From positions 1 through 49,133 of the forward strand of contig JALSQM010000036.1 of the NCBI GenBank assembly GCA_026985385.1: a stretch of DNA of 49,133 bases. The letters run 5' to 3'. Below are positions 27,752 to 43,059 of this stretch, piece by piece (the first letter of the stretch is position 1; every line of letters begins with the position of its first letter). The translations under genes and the position numbers were made by a program. Source of the stretch: Acidilobaceae archaeon. Lineage in GTDB: Archaea; Thermoproteota; Thermoprotei_A; Sulfolobales; Acidilobaceae. Under the pieces are notes generated by a model. It searched no databases, was not told where the DNA came from, and saw only the letters and a program-made list of their open reading frames with translations.

Positions 27752-28183
27752 CTACTTACCTATGTGGAGGCTGCTCCTAGTGGCCTTCAGGCCGGGCTCT
27801 CCGTGCTGCACTATCTTCGTGGTCGGACTGAACTCTCCTAGATAGTGGCCTATCATCCAAGGCGTTATCCTGACGGGGACGAACTCCTTACCGTTATATA
27901 CAGCTATGGTGAGGCCCACCATCTCGGGTAGCACTATCATGTCGCGCACATGAGTTCTTATCACCGGCGGCCTCTTCAGCTTCCCCTCCTCGAGCTTCTT
28001 CCTAACCTTCCTAACCTTTGCTAGGAGCTTCCTTTGAGCGGGGGTGAATCCCCTGAGCAGGCTCCTCCTCTGCCTGGCAGGCATTAGCTTGGCCAGGTCT
28101 TCTATGGACATCTTCATCAGCTCTTCCAGCGTATAGCCTCTGTACCTGAATCTACGCCACTCCGGCGGTATCTCAAGCGTCAC
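27752..28183 (-). CDS. rps19: 30S ribosomal protein uS19
   Basis: [49 protein letters not shown]. Confidence 0.93.
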
Positions 28184-28209
28184 TCTACCGCACCCACCCG
28201 AAGCCGGGC

Positions 28210-28232
28210 AGCCCCTGAGGGGCTTTTATTGT
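28210..28232 (-). promoter_or_regulatory. AATAAAAG TATA-like box followed by a 6-bp hairpin (AGCCCC-TCA-GGGGCT), between the vWA gene and rps19
   Basis: The 54-nt gap contains an A/T box centred about 44 nt upstream of the rps19 ATG. Read on the + strand, the same element looks like a hairpin followed by TTTTATT. Its function as promoter or terminator/attenuator is unresolved. Confidence 0.25.
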
Positions 28233-28237
28233 TCCCT

Positions 28238-30220
28238 TCAGCGGAGGAGGCTCCTAAGAACCTCCCTGGCGGCCTCCCTAGGCGTGTAGGCGACCCTAAC
28301 TAGAGCGCCTACCTCCTCCATCCGAGTTCGGGTCGCGCTGTCGTGGCCTGGCGGTACTATGGCGAGCAGTTTATATCCCCTCCTAACCAGCTGGGAAGCC
28401 ACATCGACGGGGTCACCCGGTTCGATGGTCTGCTTGAGATCGGAGACTAGAACTATCCTCTTGGTCCCCCTACCCGCGGCAGCCCGTAGTGCTGAGGCTA
28501 TGTCTGTGTAGCCGGCAAACCTCACCGAGAGCAGGGTTCTCGCTAGCTCCGTGGCAGTGAAGGGGCCCTCGAGGATCCTCGGCTCGGAGGAGAATAGTGT
28601 GAGCCTCTCAATGTTGGAGGAGAAGAGGACCGCTATAGTGAGGGCCCACATGCTGTGATCCAGCATGCTACCGCTAACGTCGAGAGCCAGGCTTATCCTC
28701 CTACTCTTCAGCCTCCTCCTAAACACCAGGGGATCCGTGGCTAGCCTCCCAAGTCTGTATATGGTCCTCCTAACCTCGAGCCTGCCCGGCGGGGATAGGG
28801 AGGTCTCGTTGCGGGGTAGTAGCCTAAGGCCCTCGCGGGCGGCGAACCTATACAAAAGGGAGGCCGTGGCCCTCACTATCAGCTCTCGCTCCTCTCCGCC
28901 AACCCTGGCGTAGAGGCCTCGTAGCACCTGCAACGACCTAGTCGGGCCTAGCCTCCTCAGCGTTGAAGCTAGGTGCTCCGCATTACCTCCCCCAGTCTCC
29001 AACGCCTCGACAATAGCTAGCGCTGTTGAGGCGAGGCTCTCTATACTCGAGGAGGAGAGGGGGCCCAGCGAGTAGGCTGCATCAATCCTCCTGGCGTCCT
29101 CAATGGCTCTGAGTGCCAGGTCTTTAGCCATATCGGCTCTACCAGGCTCGCCCGTCTCGGCGAACTTCAGCGCCTCATAGAGGCCTCTCGCCGCCTTCGT
29201 TGCTGCATCGAGTAGAGCCCCCTCCACCCCCTTGAAGGGGTGTCTTCGAACCGCCCAGAGAAGGGAGGGATCCAATCCTTCAATCAGCCTCCTAGCCTCT
29301 CCGGCATCCATGATCCTCAGTGCCTTAGCTACAAGCTCTCCGCCCCTCTCCCAGCCTAGACCAGAGGCTATTTCGGCGATCTCGCGGCCACCCACTGGGA
29401 GATCCCTTACTAGAGCGGGGTCGCTGGCTATCAAGATCCTCTCGTGGGCTATACTCAGGCTTCCAGCTCTCCTAAGTATGGGGATAACCTCCTCACCATC
29501 GATGCGCTCCCCCCTAAGGATCCTCTTACCCAGCTCCTCGGCTACAGCCTTGAGGAGGCGGGAGTCCCCCTTCCTCATGGCGGCTTTACCCAGGCTCAGC
29601 AGCCTCCTCGATTCGAGGCTCCCGAGGTCGCCTTTGACGTCGAGCTTCGCCTCGGCTCTGAGCATTGAGTCGTCCTCGCTCCAAGTTGGGGCCTCCTCTA
29701 GGGCCTCGCCTATGCTCTCATAACCCATAGAGGCTATCCTCTTGGAGATTAGGGATATCTCGGCTTCACCCACAACCCTCTCCCGGCCACGTGGCCCCCT
29801 AATGACCCCCGCCTTCCTGAGTAACAGGTACGCCGCAACTCTCTCCCTCCTCCTTGGGCCGCTCAGCACCCTCTTCTTCACAACCCTATCCCCGGGCTTC
29901 AAACCGAGCTTCCTCAGGTTCTCGTCTATCTCATCCCTGATCCTCCTAGCGTTGGCGTCCAGCTTGGCGGAGACCATCAGGCCCTTGACCTCGTTTAGGA
30001 GGAGCTGTAGTTGCTGCGGCTTCAGCGCCAAGGTAGATGCAAGCACGAGTGATACCTCGTCCTCGTCAATATAGCTCCTATTCACTAGGACAGAGTAGGA
30101 GTGAAGGATCCTAGCCGCCGTCACCAGCTGGCCGGTCCCAACCTTGAGACCCCTCCTCCTAAGCGCCTCACCCAGGGATGGCAGTAGGTCTATGAGAGCC
30201 TCAACGTTGTAGCGGGGCAA
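28238..30220 (-). CDS. vWA-domain protein, CoxE-like, with a long helical N-terminal region
   Basis: The 660-aa protein has a C-terminal vWA domain with MIDAS residues (ISLALDVSGSM ... GYTDIASAL ... VLVSDL). This is preceded by the CoxE-type basic linker (RLEVRRTIYRLGR..RRRLKSRR). The first ~480 aa are Leu/Arg/Ala-rich helical sequence with no motif I recognise. Its start overlaps the MoxR gene end by 20 nt. Confidence 0.8.
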   Translation of the reverse strand: MPRYNVEALIDLLPSLGEALRRRGLKVGTGQLVTAARILHSYSVLVNRSYIDEDEVSLVLASTLALKPQQLQLLLNEVKGLMVSAKLDANARRIRDEIDENLRKLGLKPGDRVVKKRVLSGPRRRERVAAYLLLRKAGVIRGPRGRERVVGEAEISLISKRIASMGYESIGEALEEAPTWSEDDSMLRAEAKLDVKGDLGSLESRRLLSLGKAAMRKGDSRLLKAVAEELGKRILRGERIDGEEVIPILRRAGSLSIAHERILIASDPALVRDLPVGGREIAEIASGLGWERGGELVAKALRIMDAGEARRLIEGLDPSLLWAVRRHPFKGVEGALLDAATKAARGLYEALKFAETGEPGRADMAKDLALRAIEDARRIDAAYSLGPLSSSSIESLASTALAIVEALETGGGNAEHLASTLRRLGPTRSLQVLRGLYARVGGEERELIVRATASLLYRFAAREGLRLLPRNETSLSPPGRLEVRRTIYRLGRLATDPLVFRRRLKSRRISLALDVSGSMLDHSMWALTIAVLFSSNIERLTLFSSEPRILEGPFTATELARTLLSVRFAGYTDIASALRAAAGRGTKRIVLVSDLKQTIEPGDPVDVASQLVRRGYKLLAIVPPGHDSATRTRMEEVGALVRVAYTPREAAREVLRSLLR

Positions 30221-31154
30221 TGTGGAACACCTCTCCTACCACACTACTCACTATCTCCTCGTCCTCCACCCTCTTCGCTAAAACGCTTAGGGCGGCATCG
30301 TAGACATCTTGGAGGGCCACGCTGCTTCGGCCCCGGAGCCTGGCCAGCGCTTGAGCCATGCGCGCCCACGCTACAGCCTCGGCGGTGCCAGGCTTGTGTG
30401 CGAGGCCAGACTTTCTGAGCTTTGATATGGCCTCTAGTATCAGGTTCATAGCGTTGCTGTCGAGCCTGGGGTTCTCCTCGATCCTCAGCCTAATTATGCG
30501 GGCCTCCACCTCCCTGGGGGGATATGTGAAGGGTATCCTAACCACCCTCCTGAGGAAGGCATCGCTCAGATCGTTCTGCGCTATATCCTCGGGGTTACTC
30601 GTGAAGACCACTTGGAAGCCGGGGCCCCGCGCGTGGAAGACCCTCTTTAGCTCCGGCACTACTATACGCCGCTTATCCACGACGTCTAGAAGCATGTTCT
30701 GGAAGTCCTCGTTACTCCTACGTATCTCATCGACAAGAACGCCAGCGTCTAGTATTAGAGCTGCTAGAAGTGGGCGCGGTATGAATGACTCCTCGTTAAA
30801 CCCCTTCTGCATGGCTATAAGGGGGTGGAAGTCCCCTATAACCTTGTACTCGTCGTAGTTCTCGCTGCAGGGGAGGAGGAATGGCTTCCTACCAGCCCAA
30901 AGCTCTAGGAGGGCCTCGCCTATCTCCGTCTTACCCGTGCCAGGAGGCCCCTCGAAGAGGACAGGCCTGCCATTCATAAAGGCCGCGTAGGTCAGCGCAA
31001 CTATTCTCTCGTCTACTATTAGCTTGAATTCTCTCTCGAGAACCTCAACGGCTGCTCTAGGATCCCTTACCGGCCTCCTGGGCTTGGCAACGTCCGCGTA
31101 TATCTCGTGGACTTTAGCCTCGATGGGATCCCTCTCGCCCGGATTCTCCCTCAT
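30201..31154 (-). CDS. MoxR-family AAA+ ATPase (CoxD/NorQ/CbbQ-like)
   Basis: Walker A GPPGTGKT, Walker B GVLVDEIRR, sensor-1 FTSNP, and the AFLRR arginine region. At 317 aa it is a single AAA+ module. Confidence 0.85.
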   Translation of the reverse strand: MRENPGERDPIEAKVHEIYADVAKPRRPVRDPRAAVEVLEREFKLIVDERIVALTYAAFMNGRPVLFEGPPGTGKTEIGEALLELWAGRKPFLLPCSENYDEYKVIGDFHPLIAMQKGFNEESFIPRPLLAALILDAGVLVDEIRRSNEDFQNMLLDVVDKRRIVVPELKRVFHARGPGFQVVFTSNPEDIAQNDLSDAFLRRVVRIPFTYPPREVEARIIRLRIEENPRLDSNAMNLILEAISKLRKSGLAHKPGTAEAVAWARMAQALARLRGRSSVALQDVYDAALSVLAKRVEDEEIVSSVVGEVFHIAPLQR

Positions 31155-31818
31155 ACTTACCAGCTCCCATGCCTGTGAAGCGGGTGTTCAGGGAGCTTAA
31201 GCGCTCTCTTTCCACCCACTCCCCGGGCTCGTAGATCTCCCCCTCGTCGGGGGGAGAGAGGGCCTTGTCTAGTTCCTCACATACCTCCCTGAAGGGACAC
31301 CTAGAGCACCTCCCCTTACTCCTGCGGGGGTACCCTACTATGCCCCAATACTTAATTTTAACGACGTCGTCAACAGCCCTTAAGACGGCCGAGGAGATGC
31401 TCGAGTCCAGGATGTAGCGGTAACTCCTCTCGCGATACCGTATCTCCAGTATAACCTCGTTCACGTCACTATTCCGCGCCAGGATAACGCCATACGAACC
31501 GGCTTGTAGGACGTCGCTCGGCCAGGCCTCGCGGCGCGGCCCTCTACCGCTCTTCCTCTCAATGACAATGGCCTTATCACCCCTTAGAAGTACGGCGTCA
31601 GCCCTACCCCTCAAGACGACGTTGCCCAGCCGCGTCTCCATCCGATTCTCGGTAGAGTAACCCCTCAACCGGAGGGGGACAGCTAGGATGGCGTGGTAGA
31701 TCCTGCCTAGAAGTAGGCGGATGACCTCCCATGGCCCCCTTCTGCGGGGGAGGTTGTACTCGAAGAATAGAAGCCTAGGGCAGTAGCCCAGCTTGTGTAT
31801 CTCACTGGGCCATATCAC
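31114..31818 (-). CDS. Cas4-like (DUF83) PD-(D/E)xK nuclease with four cluster cysteines, not associated with CRISPR in this window
   Basis: The motifs appear in order: an N-terminal Cys ([12 protein letters not shown]), GRIYH, the RADAV aspartate, IERK (ExK), QAGSY (QxxxY), and C-terminal [10 protein letters not shown]. The start is trimmed to GTG 31818, which overlaps the ileS TGA (GTGA). The track ORF extends to 31881. Confidence 0.75.
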
Positions 31819-34800
31819 GTAGTGGGGCTCTTCCCCGCCTTCACTATTCCTATCCTGAGTCGTCTCCCGTCCACCTCCCATTCCCTACTATAAGCGTTGG
31901 AGGGGGGCTCCCCGCGGTGTATCCTAATAGCCCTAGTCTCGCTTTTAATGTAGTCCTCCTTTTCACCTATCGCGCGCCCCATCTCATCGTCGCAGTCAAC
32001 CCACACCTCTATGTAATCGGTTACGCTTAGACCCGCCTCCTTTCTCATGAACTGTATCCTCCTCACCACCTCCCTGGCCAGCCCCTCTAGGATCTCCTCC
32101 TCGGTCACCCTAGTATCCACGGCTACGATGAAGTCGTCGCCCTCCTCAACGCTAAGCCACTCGGGGTACTCGGCTACAACCTTCACGTGCCTAGGCTCTA
32201 GGACTACCCTGACGCCTTTGTATTCCGCCTCGAAGCGGCCCTTCTCCATTAAAGCCCTTGCAACCTCCTCGCCACGCTCCCTCAGTAGCTCATACACCTT
32301 GGGGGAGTCCCTCTTGTATAGGGGGCCTATCTCTCTATAGTTCGGCTCGACGCGGTACACCCTAACCCTCTCCAAGGCCTCGGGCCGCAGGACCTCGATA
32401 CTCTTAGCGTTAACCTCCTCCAGTATTAGCTCCCCTAGCTCTCTGGCCGCATCCCTGACTAGGGGGCTGCTGGTGGCCACTATGATTCTAGAGACTGGCC
32501 TCCTGATCTTAAGTCCAGCCTTCATCCTAGCGGCTCTCGCGGCCTCTACTATTTCTCTAGCCTTACCCATTAACTCCTCCAGTCTTTCATCGATCAGGGT
32601 AATATCGGCTTCCGGGATATCTAGGAGGTGCACGGACTCGGGGCCCTCCTCGGCTTCCCGGAAGAGCTTCTGGTACACGTACTCTGTTAGGAACGGTATG
32701 AAGGGGGCTGCAGCCGCCAGCCACCTCCTAATGGCGTAGTATAGCGTGGCGTAAGCCGCCATCTTGTCTGGCGTCTCCTCGTCGGTCCACACCCTCCTCC
32801 TCACGAGCCTCAGGTACCACCTACTTACATCGTTAATTATGAACTCCCTCAGGAGCCTGGCAGCCTCGTGTATGAGCAGGGATGCCATGGCCTTATGGTA
32901 TTTCCGGAGGAAGTTGTTGACGCGAGAGAGGAGCCATTTATCCTCCACCCTTAGGTGCTTGGCGTACCTCTCTAGCGTGTGACGGGTGGGGTCGTAGGCG
33001 TCTAGGCCCATATACATGCTCATGAACGTGAAGACGTTCCAGATCACTGTGAAGTCCCTCCACATCCTCTCCATCTCGCGCCATGAAAAGCGCAGATCCT
33101 CCCAGACCGTGTTGCTGGTCGTCCAGAGCCTTACCACGTCGCGGGGGATCCTCTTTATCAGGTCGTCGAAGTCTATATAGTTGCCGAGGCTCTTGTGCAT
33201 CTCCCTGCCCTGCTCGTCTAAGGCGAAGCCGTGGACGAGAACCCTCCTATAGGGGGCCTCGCCGAACCCTATGACGCCGCTCCTGAGGAGGCTGAAGAAC
33301 CAGCCTCTTATCTGGTCGTGCCCCTCTACAATGAAGTCGACGGGCTTCAGCCTCTCCCAGAGATCCCTCCTCTTAGGGTAGCCGAGGCTCGCATAGAACG
33401 CTATGCCGCTGTCAAACCATACATCGGCTACATCCGGTACCCTCCTCATTACCCCTCCACACTTTGGACACCTCAACGTCACCTCGTCTACCCAGGGCCT
33501 ATGTAGCTCCCTAGGCCTCCTCCCCCCAAGCTTCTCGAGCTCATCCAAGCTACCAATAACGACCCTGTAGCCGCACCTCTCGCATACCCATATGGGCAGT
33601 GGGATCCCCCAGAACCTCTGCCTACTTATAACCCAGTCTCTGACATTCCTTAGGAGATGCATGAACCTCTCCTTAGCCCACCTAGGTACCCACTCTATCG
33701 TCTCGGCATTCCTGATAAGCTCGTCCCTAATCTTCGAAACCCTAATGACCCACTGCTTGGTAGCCCTGAGGAGGAGGGGGGTCTTGCAGCGCCAGCATAC
33801 CGGGTATCTGTGGACAACCCTTCCCTCGTGGAATAGTGCCCCACGCTCCCGGAGATCCCTTATTATCGCCTCGTTTGCCTCTGTCCTGAAGTAGAGTCCC
33901 GCATAACGGCCGGCCTCAGGCAGCATTCGGCCGTCGTCTCCCACTAGCGAAATCACGGGGACGCCAAGCCTCTTGCCGATCTCGAAATCAACGTCTCCAT
34001 GACCAGGGGCTGAGTGGACCAGGCCAGTGCCCTCGTGGGGGGTAACCGCCTCCGGGGCCATGACGACCCTATGGTACCTAGCTAGGATCCTCTGGGCATC
34101 CACTAGATCCTCTAGGGGGTGGAGGTACTCTAGGCCTTCTAGCTCCCTGCCAGGCATCTCCTCTAATATCTCGTACTCCTTGACTCCTGCCTCCCTCATA
34201 ACCTCCTCTACCCTAGCCTTAGCGAGGATTAGAACCTCGCCACCGACCCTCACCCTGACATAAGTAAGGTCTGGGTGCGCCATGACGAAAGCGTTAGCTG
34301 GGAGTGTCCAGGGTGTTGTCGTCCAGATGAGGAGGCTCTCCCCTTTCCTACCCTTCACGGGGAACTTCACGTATATGGAGGGATCCTCTAAGTCCCTGTA
34401 CTCTGAGACCTCGTAGTCGGCTAGTGTCGTCTGACACCTAGGACACCAGTGCACGACGTATACATCCTCGTCTAGAAGACCCTTCTCCCACGCTTTCTTG
34501 AAGAGCCACCAACCCGACTCTATGTATTCGTCCTTGAAGGTTACATAGGGGTTATCCCAATCCATAAACACCCCCAGCTCCTTGAACCTCTTCGTCTGCT
34601 CCCTCAGGTTCCTCTCCGCGAAGCGCTTGCACTCCTCGACAAACCGGTCTATACCGACCCTATCAGTTATCTCCCCCTTCTCCTTGATGCCGAGGCTCTT
34701 CTCTATCATAACCTCTATGGGGAGCCCGTGTGTATCGAAGCCTGGGCGATCCCATACGTTGAAGCCCATCATCCTGTAGTAGCGGAGGATAACGTCTTTT

Positions 34801-35009
34801 ATGATCTTGTTCCACGCTGTGCCCACATGTATACTGGGGGCGCTCGTGTAGGGAGGGCCGTCGAGGAAGTAGAGCTTCTTGGCGCTTCTAGATGCCTTCT
34901 CTTTAACGAGACGGTAGACGTTCCTCTCCTCCCAGAACTCCTTAACCCACTCCTCAACCGAGAATTGATCGTAGCGCTCGTTGCTGAGGGCGTCTCTCAT
35001 TGAAGGCAT
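31815..35009 (-). CDS. ileS: Isoleucyl-tRNA synthetase
   Basis: The 1064-aa class I aaRS has a HIGH-type [17 protein letters not shown], the editing-domain [11 protein letters not shown], a KMSKS-type EMHKSLGN, and Zn-knuckles (CPRCQT, CWRCKT, CERCGY, CPKCGG). Confidence 0.93.
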
Positions 35010-40152: not shown

Positions 40153-43059
40153 GTGGAGGCTTTGAAGGGGGAGTCGGTGGTTCTAGACATGCTCCATCCG
40201 AGGGTGAGAGAAGCTTTCAGGGGCCTCGGCTACAAGGCCTTGCTCCCGATTCAAGAGAAGAGTATACCAGTCATCCTCAGGGGAGAGCACGCGCTACTAG
40301 TAGCTCCGACAGGCAGCGGCAAGACGGAGGCGGCCCTCCTACCCGTGCTCTCACTCATGGCCAAGCTCAAGGAGGAGGGGCGCCTGGGAGGCGGGGTCAA
40401 GGCGATCTACATAACGCCCCTCAGGGCGCTTAACCGTGACATAGAGAGGAGGATCAAGGGCCTCGTAGAGGGGTCGGGGTTCACCGTTCAAGTCAGGCAT
40501 GGCGACACAAGGCCGAGCCAGCGGAGGGCCTTCCTGAGTAAGCCCCCCGACCTGATGGTGACGACTCCGGAGAGCCTAACCCTCCTCTTGTCCGCGACCG
40601 CCAAGAGGGGTCTTTGGGACAACGTGCGGTGGGTCATAGTAGATGAGGTGCACGAGCTTATAGAGAGCGAGAGGGGGGCTGAACTAGCCATAACCCTAGA
40701 GAGGCTGGAGCGCCTCTCCAAGCGTAGAATACAGAGGATAGGGCTCTCAGCAACGCTTTCAAGAGAGAGCATACGTGACGCCGTCAAGCTGCTAGCTGGC
40801 CCTAGGAGGGTTGAGGTTGTTGTGGATCCCTCGGGTAAAACCTATGATATCAGCGTCGAGGTAGTAGAGGGCGAGGAAATAGAGTGGGATAGAATGGTGA
40901 AGAGGGTTGCCGACATAATTAAATCGACCCCGGGTAAGGTCCTCGTCTTCGTCAACACGAGGGCTACAGCCGAGAAGCTCGCTGCCGGCCTCTCGTCGAT
41001 ACTGGGCGACAGCAACGTTAGGGTACACCATGGTAGCCTAGCTCGGGACGTCAGAGAGGAGGCTGAGCGCCTCTTCAAGGAGGGCAGTCTAAAGGCCTTA
41101 GTTGCAACGTCCAGCATGGAGCTGGGCGTCGACATAGGCGACGTTAACCTCGTCGTGCAATTCATGTCTCCCCGCCAGGTTCTAGCTATGACTCAAAGAG
41201 CTGGTAGGGCAGGCCACAGGTTCGGCGAGCCCTCAAGGGCTGTAATAGTGGTGCCACAGAACCTCTTCGAGATCTTGGAGGCCGCCGTGATAGCATTTAG
41301 GGCCATGAGGGGGCACCTCGAGGATCTAAGGGCCCCCCGGGGTTTAGTATGCCCCGTGGCGCATCAGCTGGTTGCAATAACCGTTGAGAGGGGAGGCACC
41401 ACGCTTTCGGAGGCGTATGAGGTTTTCGCTAATGTACCCTTCTACTCCGCCATGAGTATGGGGGACCTAGAAGAGGTAGCCGTGCATCTGGACTCTCTGC
41501 GTATACTGCGGTACGACGAGTCAACAGGCACCCTTAAGGAGAGTGGGAGATCCAGGAGATACCTCTACGGCGTCTCCATGATACCGGATGAGGCCGCATA
41601 CACAGTCATAGATATGATAGAGGATAAGCGGATTGGTGAGGTGAGCGAGAGGTTTATTGAGGCATCTCTCCTGAACATCGATGAGGGTGAGAGGCTGCGC
41701 TTCATACTAGCCGGTAAACTCTGGGAGGTCGTTGAGATAGACTACGAGGATATGAGGATTACCGTGAAGCCCATAGCGGAAGCCGAGGGCCTAGTCCCCG
41801 CCTGGCAGGGAGAGCTCATACCCGTCGACTATAAGGTCGCGAGGGAGGTCTGCGCGCTTCTCTCCCTAGCCATGTACTCGCCAGATGAGGCTAGCAGGAT
41901 CATAGCCGCTAGGGGCCTCGATGAGAGGTGGGTTAACTGGGTAGTAGGGCAGGCCCGTGGAACCGCAAAGGCTTGGGGGGCCCCCTACCTGGAGCCCGGT
42001 AGACCTGTGGTCGAGGTATACCCAAACCTAGCCATAGTCTATGTCTGCCTCGGCAGCAAGGGTAACATGGCGCTAGCGCTTCTGTTAAGCGAGCTGCTGG
42101 CGGCCCGCGGTATACCTGTTAGGTTCAACCACATACCCTACGCTATAGTCCTGAGCAGGCCGGACTCGGCTCCCCTCAGCGGGGATCTCATAGTAGAGGT
42201 TCTCCGGGAGGCCGCGCGCATGGATAGAGTGGAGCGCGCAGGCCTCGTCTACCAAGCCCTTAAGAGGAGCCAGGCATTCCTATACAGGTTCCTCCACGTT
42301 GCTAGGAGGCTCGGCGTGCTCGATAGAGAGGCTAGGGCAAGCCCAGGCCTGCTCAAGAGGATCCTAGAGGCGTACAGGGGCAGCATCGTTGAGAGGGAGG
42401 TATTAAAGGAGCTCGTCTACGATAAGCTTGACATGAGAGCCCTTAACGAGTATCTCGACGCAATGAAGGATCCCGTGCCTGTGAGACTCGATAAAGCGAC
42501 GCCGCTAGCAATGGCCGTCCTAGGGAACCCCTACCTGCGCAGCGACATAGCGGTCAACCTGAAGGAGATAGCGCTTGACAAGCTTGTTGAGGGGATAAAG
42601 AGGAGGCTTCAGAGGAGGCACGTCCTGATGCTATGCACGCACTGCGGCCACGCCTGGGAGGTGGAGGTTCAGAGGATCCCCGCCGAGGCACCGCTCCGCT
42701 GCCCGCGCTGCCGCTACCCAACGCTAGCCCCCCTACCCCCCGGCGACTGGGGGCGCCAGGTAGTCGAGGCTTACAGGAAGAAGTTGAGGGGGGAGAGGCT
42801 GACGAGGGAGGAGAAGAAGCTGGTCAAGGAGGCCGAGGAGAGGGCTAGTCTCTACATGCACTACTCCTTCCAGGGCCTGGGCCGCCGGGTAGTGGAGGCT
42901 CTACTCGCTAGGGGTGTGGGGCCGAGGGCCGCTAAGCGCGCCGTGGAGGCCTACATGGCTGGTGGTGAGAGGGAGTTCTACAGGACTCTAATGGAGGCTG
43001 AGGAGACTTATGTCAGCACGCGTAAGTACTGGGAGAAGCGTAGGCCAGAAGCGGCGTAG
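40153..43059 (+). CDS. lhr: Lhr-type superfamily 2 DEAH/DEVH helicase with a C-terminal zinc ribbon
   Basis: Q-motif LLPIQEKS, motif I APTGSGKTEAALLP, motif II VIVDEVHEL, SAT (LSATL), HHGSLARDVREEAE, and motif VI QRAGRAGHR. There is a large Lhr-like C-terminal extension with CTHCGH...CPRCRY. The ATG at 40189 is an alternative start. Confidence 0.8.
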   Translation: MEALKGESVVLDMLHPRVREAFRGLGYKALLPIQEKSIPVILRGEHALLVAPTGSGKTEAALLPVLSLMAKLKEEGRLGGGVKAIYITPLRALNRDIERRIKGLVEGSGFTVQVRHGDTRPSQRRAFLSKPPDLMVTTPESLTLLLSATAKRGLWDNVRWVIVDEVHELIESERGAELAITLERLERLSKRRIQRIGLSATLSRESIRDAVKLLAGPRRVEVVVDPSGKTYDISVEVVEGEEIEWDRMVKRVADIIKSTPGKVLVFVNTRATAEKLAAGLSSILGDSNVRVHHGSLARDVREEAERLFKEGSLKALVATSSMELGVDIGDVNLVVQFMSPRQVLAMTQRAGRAGHRFGEPSRAVIVVPQNLFEILEAAVIAFRAMRGHLEDLRAPRGLVCPVAHQLVAITVERGGTTLSEAYEVFANVPFYSAMSMGDLEEVAVHLDSLRILRYDESTGTLKESGRSRRYLYGVSMIPDEAAYTVIDMIEDKRIGEVSERFIEASLLNIDEGERLRFILAGKLWEVVEIDYEDMRITVKPIAEAEGLVPAWQGELIPVDYKVAREVCALLSLAMYSPDEASRIIAARGLDERWVNWVVGQARGTAKAWGAPYLEPGRPVVEVYPNLAIVYVCLGSKGNMALALLLSELLAARGIPVRFNHIPYAIVLSRPDSAPLSGDLIVEVLREAARMDRVERAGLVYQALKRSQAFLYRFLHVARRLGVLDREARASPGLLKRILEAYRGSIVEREVLKELVYDKLDMRALNEYLDAMKDPVPVRLDKATPLAMAVLGNPYLRSDIAVNLKEIALDKLVEGIKRRLQRRHVLMLCTHCGHAWEVEVQRIPAEAPLRCPRCRYPTLAPLPPGDWGRQVVEAYRKKLRGERLTREEKKLVKEAEERASLYMHYSFQGLGRRVVEALLARGVGPRAAKRAVEAYMAGGEREFYRTLMEAEETYVSTRKYWEKRRPEAA

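Follow-up and report, generated by a model that had tools for sequence, protein, structure and literature searches.

Known pairs of a MoxR-class AAA+ ATPase and a von Willebrand factor A (vWA) protein serve metalloenzymes (PMC3893208), and the metal ion-dependent adhesion site (MIDAS) domains of such partners bind acidic residues of their clients (PMC7159879). Systems of the vWA-MoxR kind that carry variable effectors and act in biological conflict have also been proposed (Kaur, Burroughs, Iyer, Aravind 2020, PMC7159879); those published are mobile, patchily distributed and mostly bacterial. Solo Cas4 proteins are near-universal in archaea (about 90% of archaea), where they are inherited vertically and form order-level clades (Hudaiberdiev et al. 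2017, PMC5704561). Here we describe a locus at which a Cas4-like gene stands beside a moxR-vWA pair. It lies in a 49,133-nt stretch of DNA, referred to below as the window, which is contig JALSQM010000036.1 (GCA_026985385.1) of an Acidilobaceae archaeon. Four genes follow one another there on the minus strand with no real gaps: ileS (31815-35009), the Cas4-like open reading frame (ORF), moxR (30201..31154) and the vWA gene (28238..30220). A preliminary description of the window had presented the last three as co-directional, overlapping genes of the Cas4-like, MoxR and CoxE-type vWA families. Profile matches bear out all three identities, and the two overlaps, 41 nt between the tail of the Cas4 ORF and the start of moxR (31114..31154) and 20 nt between the moxR stop and the vWA start (30201..30220), are exactly as that description gave them.

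We conclude that this region probably comprises two functionally separable units lying side by side on a housekeeping backbone, ileS ... moxR-vWA ... uS19, a reading to which we assign a probability of about 0.6. The first unit is a solo Cas4 that, judged by homology with characterized Cas4 proteins, would act on the ends of DNA during repair or recombination and not in CRISPR adaptation. The second is a translationally coupled MoxR-vWA chaperone pair, conserved throughout the Desulfurococcales. By analogy with CoxD-CoxE, NorQ-NorD, CbbQ-CbbO and RavA-ViaA (PMC7159879, PMC3893208), MoxR would form a hexameric AAA+ ring and the vWA protein would act as its adaptor, the MIDAS-bound metal being completed by an acidic side chain of the client; ATP hydrolysis would then remodel or mature the client complex. 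The adjacency of Cas4 and MoxR would have arisen, or been lost, once at a split between two clades, and would since have been inherited vertically, with repeated breakage.

The evidence for this division comes from a census of gene order, made by tblastn with the window's own proteins. It covered 109 related loci from three sources, namely homologue look-ups, a MoxR scan and a Cas4 scan. The scan with the MoxR alignment, taking one genome per species, gave 80 loci, all of them in the Desulfurococcales in the broad sense, and the scan of metagenomes with the Cas4 alignment gave 20. Many of the loci are from metagenome-assembled genomes (MAGs) and some are near-duplicates, the effect of which is limited by dereplication and by tree-based counts. 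Among relatives that bear a name, the nearest is the MAG Candidatus Calypsonella navitae (86% MoxR identity), which stands among Acidilobaceae MAGs. Single loci are cited below by our own numbers (L004, L005 and so on).

The vWA gene lay directly 3' of moxR in all 78 loci with room for it, and the junction between the two fell between −38 and +22 nt in 71 orthologous loci, which establishes MoxR and vWA as the genuine pair that the preliminary description took them to be. The pair moves or vanishes as a two-gene unit. Cas4 was found directly 5' of MoxR in 41 loci and was absent at 51 loci whose upstream sequence exceeds 1 kb. A maximum-likelihood tree built from 85 distinct MoxR sequences resolved two well-supported clades. 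Clade A, to which the window belongs, holds the Acidilobaceae-type MAGs, Acidilobus, Caldisphaera and MAGs labeled Aeropyrum and Thermodiscus, with Cas4 adjacent in 34 of its 38 rows. Clade B comprises Pyrodictiaceae, Hyperthermus and Desulfurococcaceae, and Cas4 is adjacent in 0 of its 47 rows. On this tree, four changes account for the adjacency: one falls at the split, and the other three are secondary losses (L010; L013 together with L028; L042). At the loci of these three losses MoxR-vWA is present and Cas4 is not, and at L042 and L054 IleRS abuts MoxR with no Cas4 in between.

The slot 5' of moxR has other occupants elsewhere. In the Pyrodictiaceae of clade B, a small divergent gene fills the position between IleRS and MoxR. 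More broadly, a protein of 120 to 190 aa with no Pfam match is encoded divergently and directly 5' of MoxR at L005:5457-5927 (−), at L067:5225-5656 (−) and at about 30 further clade-B loci, the position taken by Cas4 in the clade of the window. Its Pyrodictiaceae and Desulfurococcaceae versions are homologous (hhalign probability 93%, E = 3.5e-7), and no homologue was found in the window or at any clade-A locus. Upstream of MoxR in L013 and L028 lie two ORFs of about 480 aa that we read by eye as gatA-gatB (Glu-tRNA amidotransferase); they abut MoxR in L028, two other ORFs intervene in L013, and here too the neighborhood would consist of translation genes.

From the standpoint of Cas4, 54 loci reduced to 30 clusters at 80% identity. 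Twenty of these have the order IleRS-Cas4-MoxR, seven have Cas4-MoxR without IleRS (two events), and three have IleRS-Cas4 without MoxR (two events). MoxR is thus directly 3' of Cas4 in 27 of the 30 clusters and IleRS directly 5' in 23. Counted by independent events, on the other hand, the Cas4/MoxR side has been broken at least five times and the IleRS side twice. The idea that Cas4 simply belongs to ileS and not to moxR is borne out only in part: slightly more clusters retain MoxR than retain IleRS. Taken together, the cluster counts and the event counts suggest that Cas4 occupies a slot between two old neighbors and is owned by neither.

The loci at which MoxR is missing show the same separability from the other direction. 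L107 and L089 carry, one after another, TtuA, radical SAM, a 90-aa gene, IleRS, Cas4, ArgRS and PNP, which is the order of Acidilobus saccharovorans minus exactly MoxR-vWA. In L095 to L098, the next gene after IleRS-Cas4 is an unannotated ORF of 349 aa in convergent orientation, and MoxR is absent downstream. The claim that the three genes form one module is therefore not supported: the pair occurs without Cas4 in the whole sister clade and in four clade-A rows, and Cas4 stays beside ileS where MoxR-vWA is missing. Conserved synteny of the trio was confirmed within one clade, in the 27 clusters noted above, and failed in its sister. Because the pair is found throughout the order and Cas4 is limited to one clade, we regard ileS ... 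moxR-vWA ... uS19 as the old backbone and Cas4 as a clade-specific occupant of a slot in it. Median identity was 72% for MoxR and 45% for Cas4; conservation of MoxR so far above that of Cas4 fits a client that is older and more conserved than the nuclease.

In the Acidilobus lineage, the vWA partner (L006:7632-9197) is shortened, at 521 aa, and nothing in it detectably matches the N-terminal region of the window protein. This shortening, together with the absence of the pair from the otherwise identical locus of a sister lineage (L107 and L089), suggests that the pair has decayed or moved elsewhere in the genus.

At its other end, the backbone runs into ribosomal-protein genes. In 47 of 76 loci no more than 0.7 kb separates vWA from the uS19 gene, and in 61 of 76 the distance is at most 5 kb. 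The pair stands before uS19 in the window's clade and converges on L2-S19 in the Pyrodictiaceae, and in the Desulfurococcaceae it is inserted between uL2 and uS19 of the universally conserved operon. At L067, a Desulfurococcaceae locus confirmed with Pfam, the order is L3-L4-L23-L2, an opposite-strand 143-aa gene, MoxR, vWA and S19-L22-S3. Across the loci, the neighbors are ileS, argS, gatAB, ttuA and ribosomal-protein genes. Over 58 loci, the median identities to the window were 62% (MoxR), 73% (uS19) and 39% (vWA domain), so that MoxR evolves almost as slowly as uS19. The preliminary description had allowed that the pair might be linked consistently to some other client, for example an oxidoreductase. 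The consistent link exists, to the uS19 end of the ribosomal-protein cluster, and no oxidoreductase client was found beside the pair at the annotated loci. In a close relative of the window, an 854-aa ORF with no Pfam match lies between vWA and uS19 (L004:8213-10777).

In eukaryotes, midasin/Rea1 combines an AAA_5 ring with a MIDAS domain and removes assembly factors from pre-60S ribosomes. To our knowledge, archaea have no known client of the Ytm1/Rsa4 type, nor is any ATP-driven, midasin-like assembly factor known for their ribosomes. As for the client of the MoxR-vWA pair, gene position and conservation hint at the translation apparatus, a component of which is the most interesting candidate. 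MoxR-vWA may be an archaeal ATP-driven remodeling factor of the translation apparatus, acting in ribosome assembly or quality control as a two-piece, midasin-like device, with Cas4 as a passenger or secondary client. The position at uL2/uS19, the near-ribosomal rate of evolution and the neighbors ileS, argS, gatAB and ttuA would all fit this suggestion, which we offer as tentative and, on balance, doubtful.

The same neighborhood could also mean much less. All the adjacencies might reflect compaction, and the position near uS19 might be a frozen accident, with the pair serving a metalloenzyme client encoded elsewhere, as CoxD-CoxE does. The vWA domain does match the CoxE family, the known pairs do serve metalloenzymes, and slow rearrangement of ribosomal operons could alone preserve a linkage to uS19. 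We nevertheless think this explanation improbable, since proximity to uS19 has survived three different operon rearrangements, the sequence of the ATPase is unusually well conserved, and no oxidoreductase or candidate metalloenzyme client is adjacent to the pair in any annotated locus. Genes for the known kinds of client (CO dehydrogenase, NO reductase, Rubisco, a respiratory complex, a molybdo- or copper enzyme) were found neither in the window nor in the annotated loci.

Several observations weigh against dividing the region into two units. Within its clade, the adjacency of Cas4 and MoxR is well kept, and the seven clusters (two events) that lack IleRS retained Cas4-MoxR after ileS had separated. 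All three genes are on the same strand and tightly spaced. A conserved acidic motif in the C-terminal part of Cas4 could in principle serve as a MIDAS ligand. The pair's tie to ribosomal genes, moreover, is only positional. Some functional tie between Cas4 and the pair in clade A may exist.

The motif in question, (L/V)YEPG(S/E)W or YEPGxW for short, is specific to this Cas4 subfamily. It lies C-terminal of the last cysteine, at about residues 195 to 205 (window positions 31200-31290, minus strand). The closest solved Cas4 structure (PDB 4r5q) stops immediately past the last cysteine and is thus without this region.

If the trio did cooperate in clade A, the pair might mature Cas4 or load its Fe-S cluster, or might deliver Cas4 to DNA ends or activate it there, with YEPGxW docking on the MIDAS by way of its conserved Glu, as expected of a domain that binds acidic client residues. 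The cluster counts, the two events in which Cas4-MoxR outlived its link to ileS, and the close, co-oriented spacing of the genes are all in keeping with such a role. We consider it unlikely, however. The pair occurs order-wide and is equally conserved where no Cas4 is adjacent, as throughout the sister clade, and the Cas4/MoxR junction has been broken repeatedly. The motif does not track MoxR either: it is retained where MoxR is not adjacent (VEPGQW in L089, FEPGNW in L096) and is degenerate in L029 and L072, two lineages in which the adjacency is intact. Promoter-like spacers before moxR in most relatives and the far higher conservation of MoxR than of Cas4 also speak against Cas4 as the client. 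For the earlier idea that the pair loads the Fe-S nuclease, the positive evidence is adjacency in one clade and nothing beyond.

The overlaps tell the two junctions apart. At most clade-A loci, a spacer of 50 to 90 nt lies between Cas4 and MoxR and contains a TATA-like element (TTATA, TTTAA or TAATTA) about 35 to 50 nt before the ATG. In the window, a TATA-like TTAAGC lies about 41 to 46 nt 5' of the moxR ATG, within the Cas4 tail. Overlap between Cas4 and MoxR is limited to the window's close relatives, whereas the coupling of MoxR to vWA is conserved. Since most relatives have the TATA-like spacer instead, we take the 41-nt Cas4/MoxR overlap to be local compaction. A separate moxR promoter in the clade-A spacers is plausible, and cas4 is probably cotranscribed with ileS, the promoter assignments being pattern matches only. 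The sequencing runs found to contain the window are all DNA metagenomes.

The junction between ileS and cas4 is a GTGA (31815..31818, minus strand), in which the ileS stop overlaps a GTG start. The Cas4 ORF as a whole spans 31114..31881, with an alternative ATG start at 31881. The likely start is nevertheless the GTG at 31818, which directly follows the ileS stop and is favored by the length of the homologues (209 to 238 aa); from there the gene (31114..31818, minus strand) encodes 234 aa. The final 25 or so residues are a nonconserved read-through tail over the moxR start. The protein matched TIGR00372 at 71.4 bits (cutoff 65), PF01930 at 26.4 bits (cutoff 22.7) and PF12705 at 37.5 bits. The full Cas4 motif set that had been read from the window is invariant in an alignment of 18 Cas4 homologues: C13, G71-R72-x-D74, E87-x-K89, Q105xxxY109 and C171xxC174x5C180. 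The closest solved structure, 4r5q, is that of Cas4 Pcal_0546 from Pyrobaculum calidifontis (E = 5.6e-4).

As the preliminary description had noted, the window shows no sign of a CRISPR system. No tandem CRISPR array was found in its 49 kb, and, apart from Cas4 itself, no Cas domain was found among its ORFs of at least 170 aa; of the smaller ORFs, the analysis covered the identifiable ribosomal-protein ORFs. Nor were there cas neighbors at any annotated related locus. Given these absences, we identify the protein, a predicted iron-sulfur PD-(D/E)XK nuclease, as a solo Cas4.

The preliminary description had also proposed that the trio is an NTP-dependent conflict or repair module with Cas4 as its effector. 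As a conflict system of the vWA-MoxR kind directed against viruses or plasmids, it would use Cas4 to cut DNA. Such systems with variable effectors have been proposed, as noted above, a Cas4 nuclease does occur in immunity systems, and the different small protein found 5' of MoxR in the sister clade superficially recalls their variable third components. PADLOC, however, returned Cas4 models only for the nuclease and nothing significant for MoxR or vWA, the best match (E = 5e-4) being to an unrelated candidate. The bpMoxR model of Pfam, which represents the published vWA-MoxR systems, scored 16.6 bits against a cutoff of 27. The pair is inherited vertically, is order-wide and single-copy, stays at one housekeeping position and matches core translation proteins in its slow evolution. 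Its neighbors are translation genes, with no defense-island genes among them. We therefore give the conflict reading very little credence.

The ATPase itself (317 aa) combines an AAA_5 core (65.9 bits) with an AAA lid (AAA_lid_2, 27.4 bits). Its Walker A motif is GPPGTGKTE and its Walker B motif LVDEIRR; GPPGTGKTE and D142-E143 are invariant among 12 MoxR orthologues, which share 75 invariant columns in all, and identity across the order is 56 to 86%. In a collection of 1.84 billion representatives, the family forms a single 50%-identity cluster scoring 523 bits, and the next protein scores 157 bits, which marks it as order-confined and sharply bounded. It does not fall into the CGN subfamily (CbbQ/GvpN/NorQ): no CbbQ_C domain was detected at E <= 0.1, and GvpN scored 56.6 bits against a cutoff of 266.8. 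The PDB chains of CbbQ, NorQ and MoxR 2r44 score about 27 to 33 bits against the family profile. The best NCBIfam match, the MadB family AAA-type ATPase (NF047784), reached 102.2 bits against a cutoff of 475 and so does not place the protein in that family. Weak matches to DUF5682 were seen in the ATPase and in three vWA partners; our literature search found nothing on MadB ATPases or DUF5682. The closest relatives outside the order include fusions of AAA_5 to a C-terminal vWA domain, 584 to 711 aa in length (P0167, P0169, P0174, P0176 and P0178).

Ranked by whole-sequence score, the top PDB match of the MoxR family profile was midasin (86.8 bits), and proteins of 4000 to 5700 residues with 3 to 8 matched stretches dominated the list of representatives. 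A special kinship with midasin was rejected after per-domain rescoring. The best single domain of midasin-size proteins reached at most 47 bits (median, 33), whereas single-domain relatives and AAA_5-vWA fusions scored 90 to 117 bits (median, 93 for proteins below 450 aa and 103 for fusions of 570 to 715 aa). The top rank of midasin thus came from summed scores of its AAA domains, and a top-ranking midasin match can be an artifact of multidomain scoring. The resemblance would be a functional analogy at most, between one AAA_5 motor with its MIDAS adaptor and another.

The vWA protein (660 aa, TTG start, minus strand) has its CoxE-type vWA domain at residues 470 to 660. The VWA_CoxE match (43.5 bits; cutoff, 26.4) covers residues 470 to 641 only and was found in all 32 family members. 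The MIDAS is intact, and its residues, D514xS516xS518, T572 and D594, are invariant in the 32 vWA partners. MoxR partners such as NorD, CbbO and ViaA typically have a long N-terminal region ahead of their C-terminal vWA domain. Here, residues 1 to 467 form an all-helical region with no recognizable relative, as the preliminary description had found. In Pfam searches of this region nothing recurred, HEAT, FliG and MgtE_N appearing as scattered matches in 1 to 4 of the 32 members.

AlphaFold2, run with the family alignments, gave confident models, with a predicted local distance difference test (pLDDT) score of 88.7 for the full-length protein and of 89.9 for a model of residues 1 to 470. In the predicted structure, about 25 helices and a few short strands would precede a canonical vWA fold. 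In a Foldseek comparison with the PDB, the vWA domain alone was matched convincingly, its counterparts being TFIIH p44/p34, integrin I domains and Rpn10. With the N-terminal region alone, it returned nothing below E = 0.04 (14-3-3 proteins, with template modeling [TM] scores below 0.3). The top Foldseek match of the whole protein, Ro60 (TROVE; E = 1.4e-4), was set aside, as its TM score was 0.21 to 0.26 and its root mean square deviation 18 Å and as it disappeared when the N-terminal region was used alone. The match reflects generic helices and the resemblance of the vWA domains.

The 54 nt between the vWA stop and the uS19 start (28184..28237, minus strand) contain a TATA-like box, AATAAAAG, followed directly by a perfect palindrome, AGCCCCTCAGGGGCT. 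This spacer probably holds the promoter of the ribosomal-protein operon, of which uS19 (27752-28183, minus strand) is the first gene in the block, and the palindrome could be a regulatory or terminator hairpin beside the promoter. The ORFs of at least 170 aa in the rest of the window encode metabolic enzymes, a type IV pilus ATPase and platform protein, surface proteins, an Lhr-type helicase and others. The large Lhr-type helicase (40153-43059, plus strand; DEAD, Helicase_C and DEAD_assoc domains and a weak Lhr winged-helix match), a DNA-repair helicase, lies about 8 kb from Cas4. It is not adjacent to the trio and is not kept near it in the other loci examined.

For the trio, the outcome is deflationary: instead of a new Cas4-centered defense or repair machine, we see an ordinary solo Cas4 beside a chaperone pair. 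What remains of interest is an uncharacterized, slowly evolving MoxR-vWA family that is limited to one order, is sharply bounded and sits within the operon that archaeal genomes conserve best. If its client belongs to the translation apparatus, the pair would close the midasin-kind gap in archaea; if the client is a metalloenzyme, the pair would add another maturase like CoxD-CoxE.

We compared the two units with their closest described counterparts. The nuclease resembles other archaeal solo Cas4 proteins (COG1468/PF01930/TIGR00372) in its RecB-type motifs, its QxxxY motif and its four cluster cysteines, as well as in its location outside CRISPR-cas loci and its vertical inheritance in an order-level lineage. 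It is only distantly similar to Cas4 proteins of solved structure, and it carries a C-terminal extension with the subfamily's own YEPGxW motif. A fixed slot between ileS and moxR is not mentioned in the survey of solo Cas4 (PMC5704561), the text of which contains neither "AAA" nor "vWA", and we found no paper joining Cas4 and MoxR in this sense.

With the vWA-MoxR ternary conflict systems the locus shares a MoxR-vWA core and a lineage-variable upstream gene, here Cas4 or a small protein. The pair of the window is, however, neither mobile nor patchy, and it comes without VMAP, FtsH or beta-propeller components. Like midasin/Rea1, the pair joins an AAA_5 motor to a MIDAS adaptor and has a genomic tie to ribosomal genes. 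Midasin, however, carries six tandem AAA_5 modules and the MIDAS on one polypeptide, whereas the window has a single AAA module on a separate polypeptide.

Closest in design are CoxD-CoxE, NorQ-NorD, CbbQ-CbbO and RavA-ViaA, in each of which, as in the window, an AAA_5 gene is coupled to a gene whose product ends in a vWA/MIDAS domain after a long N-terminal region; the vWA domain of the window protein matches the CoxE family in particular. The new pair differs from them in having no detected CbbQ_C domain, in being limited to one archaeal order, in the 470-residue helical region of its adaptor, which has no solved relative, and in its position embedded in or beside a ribosomal-protein operon.

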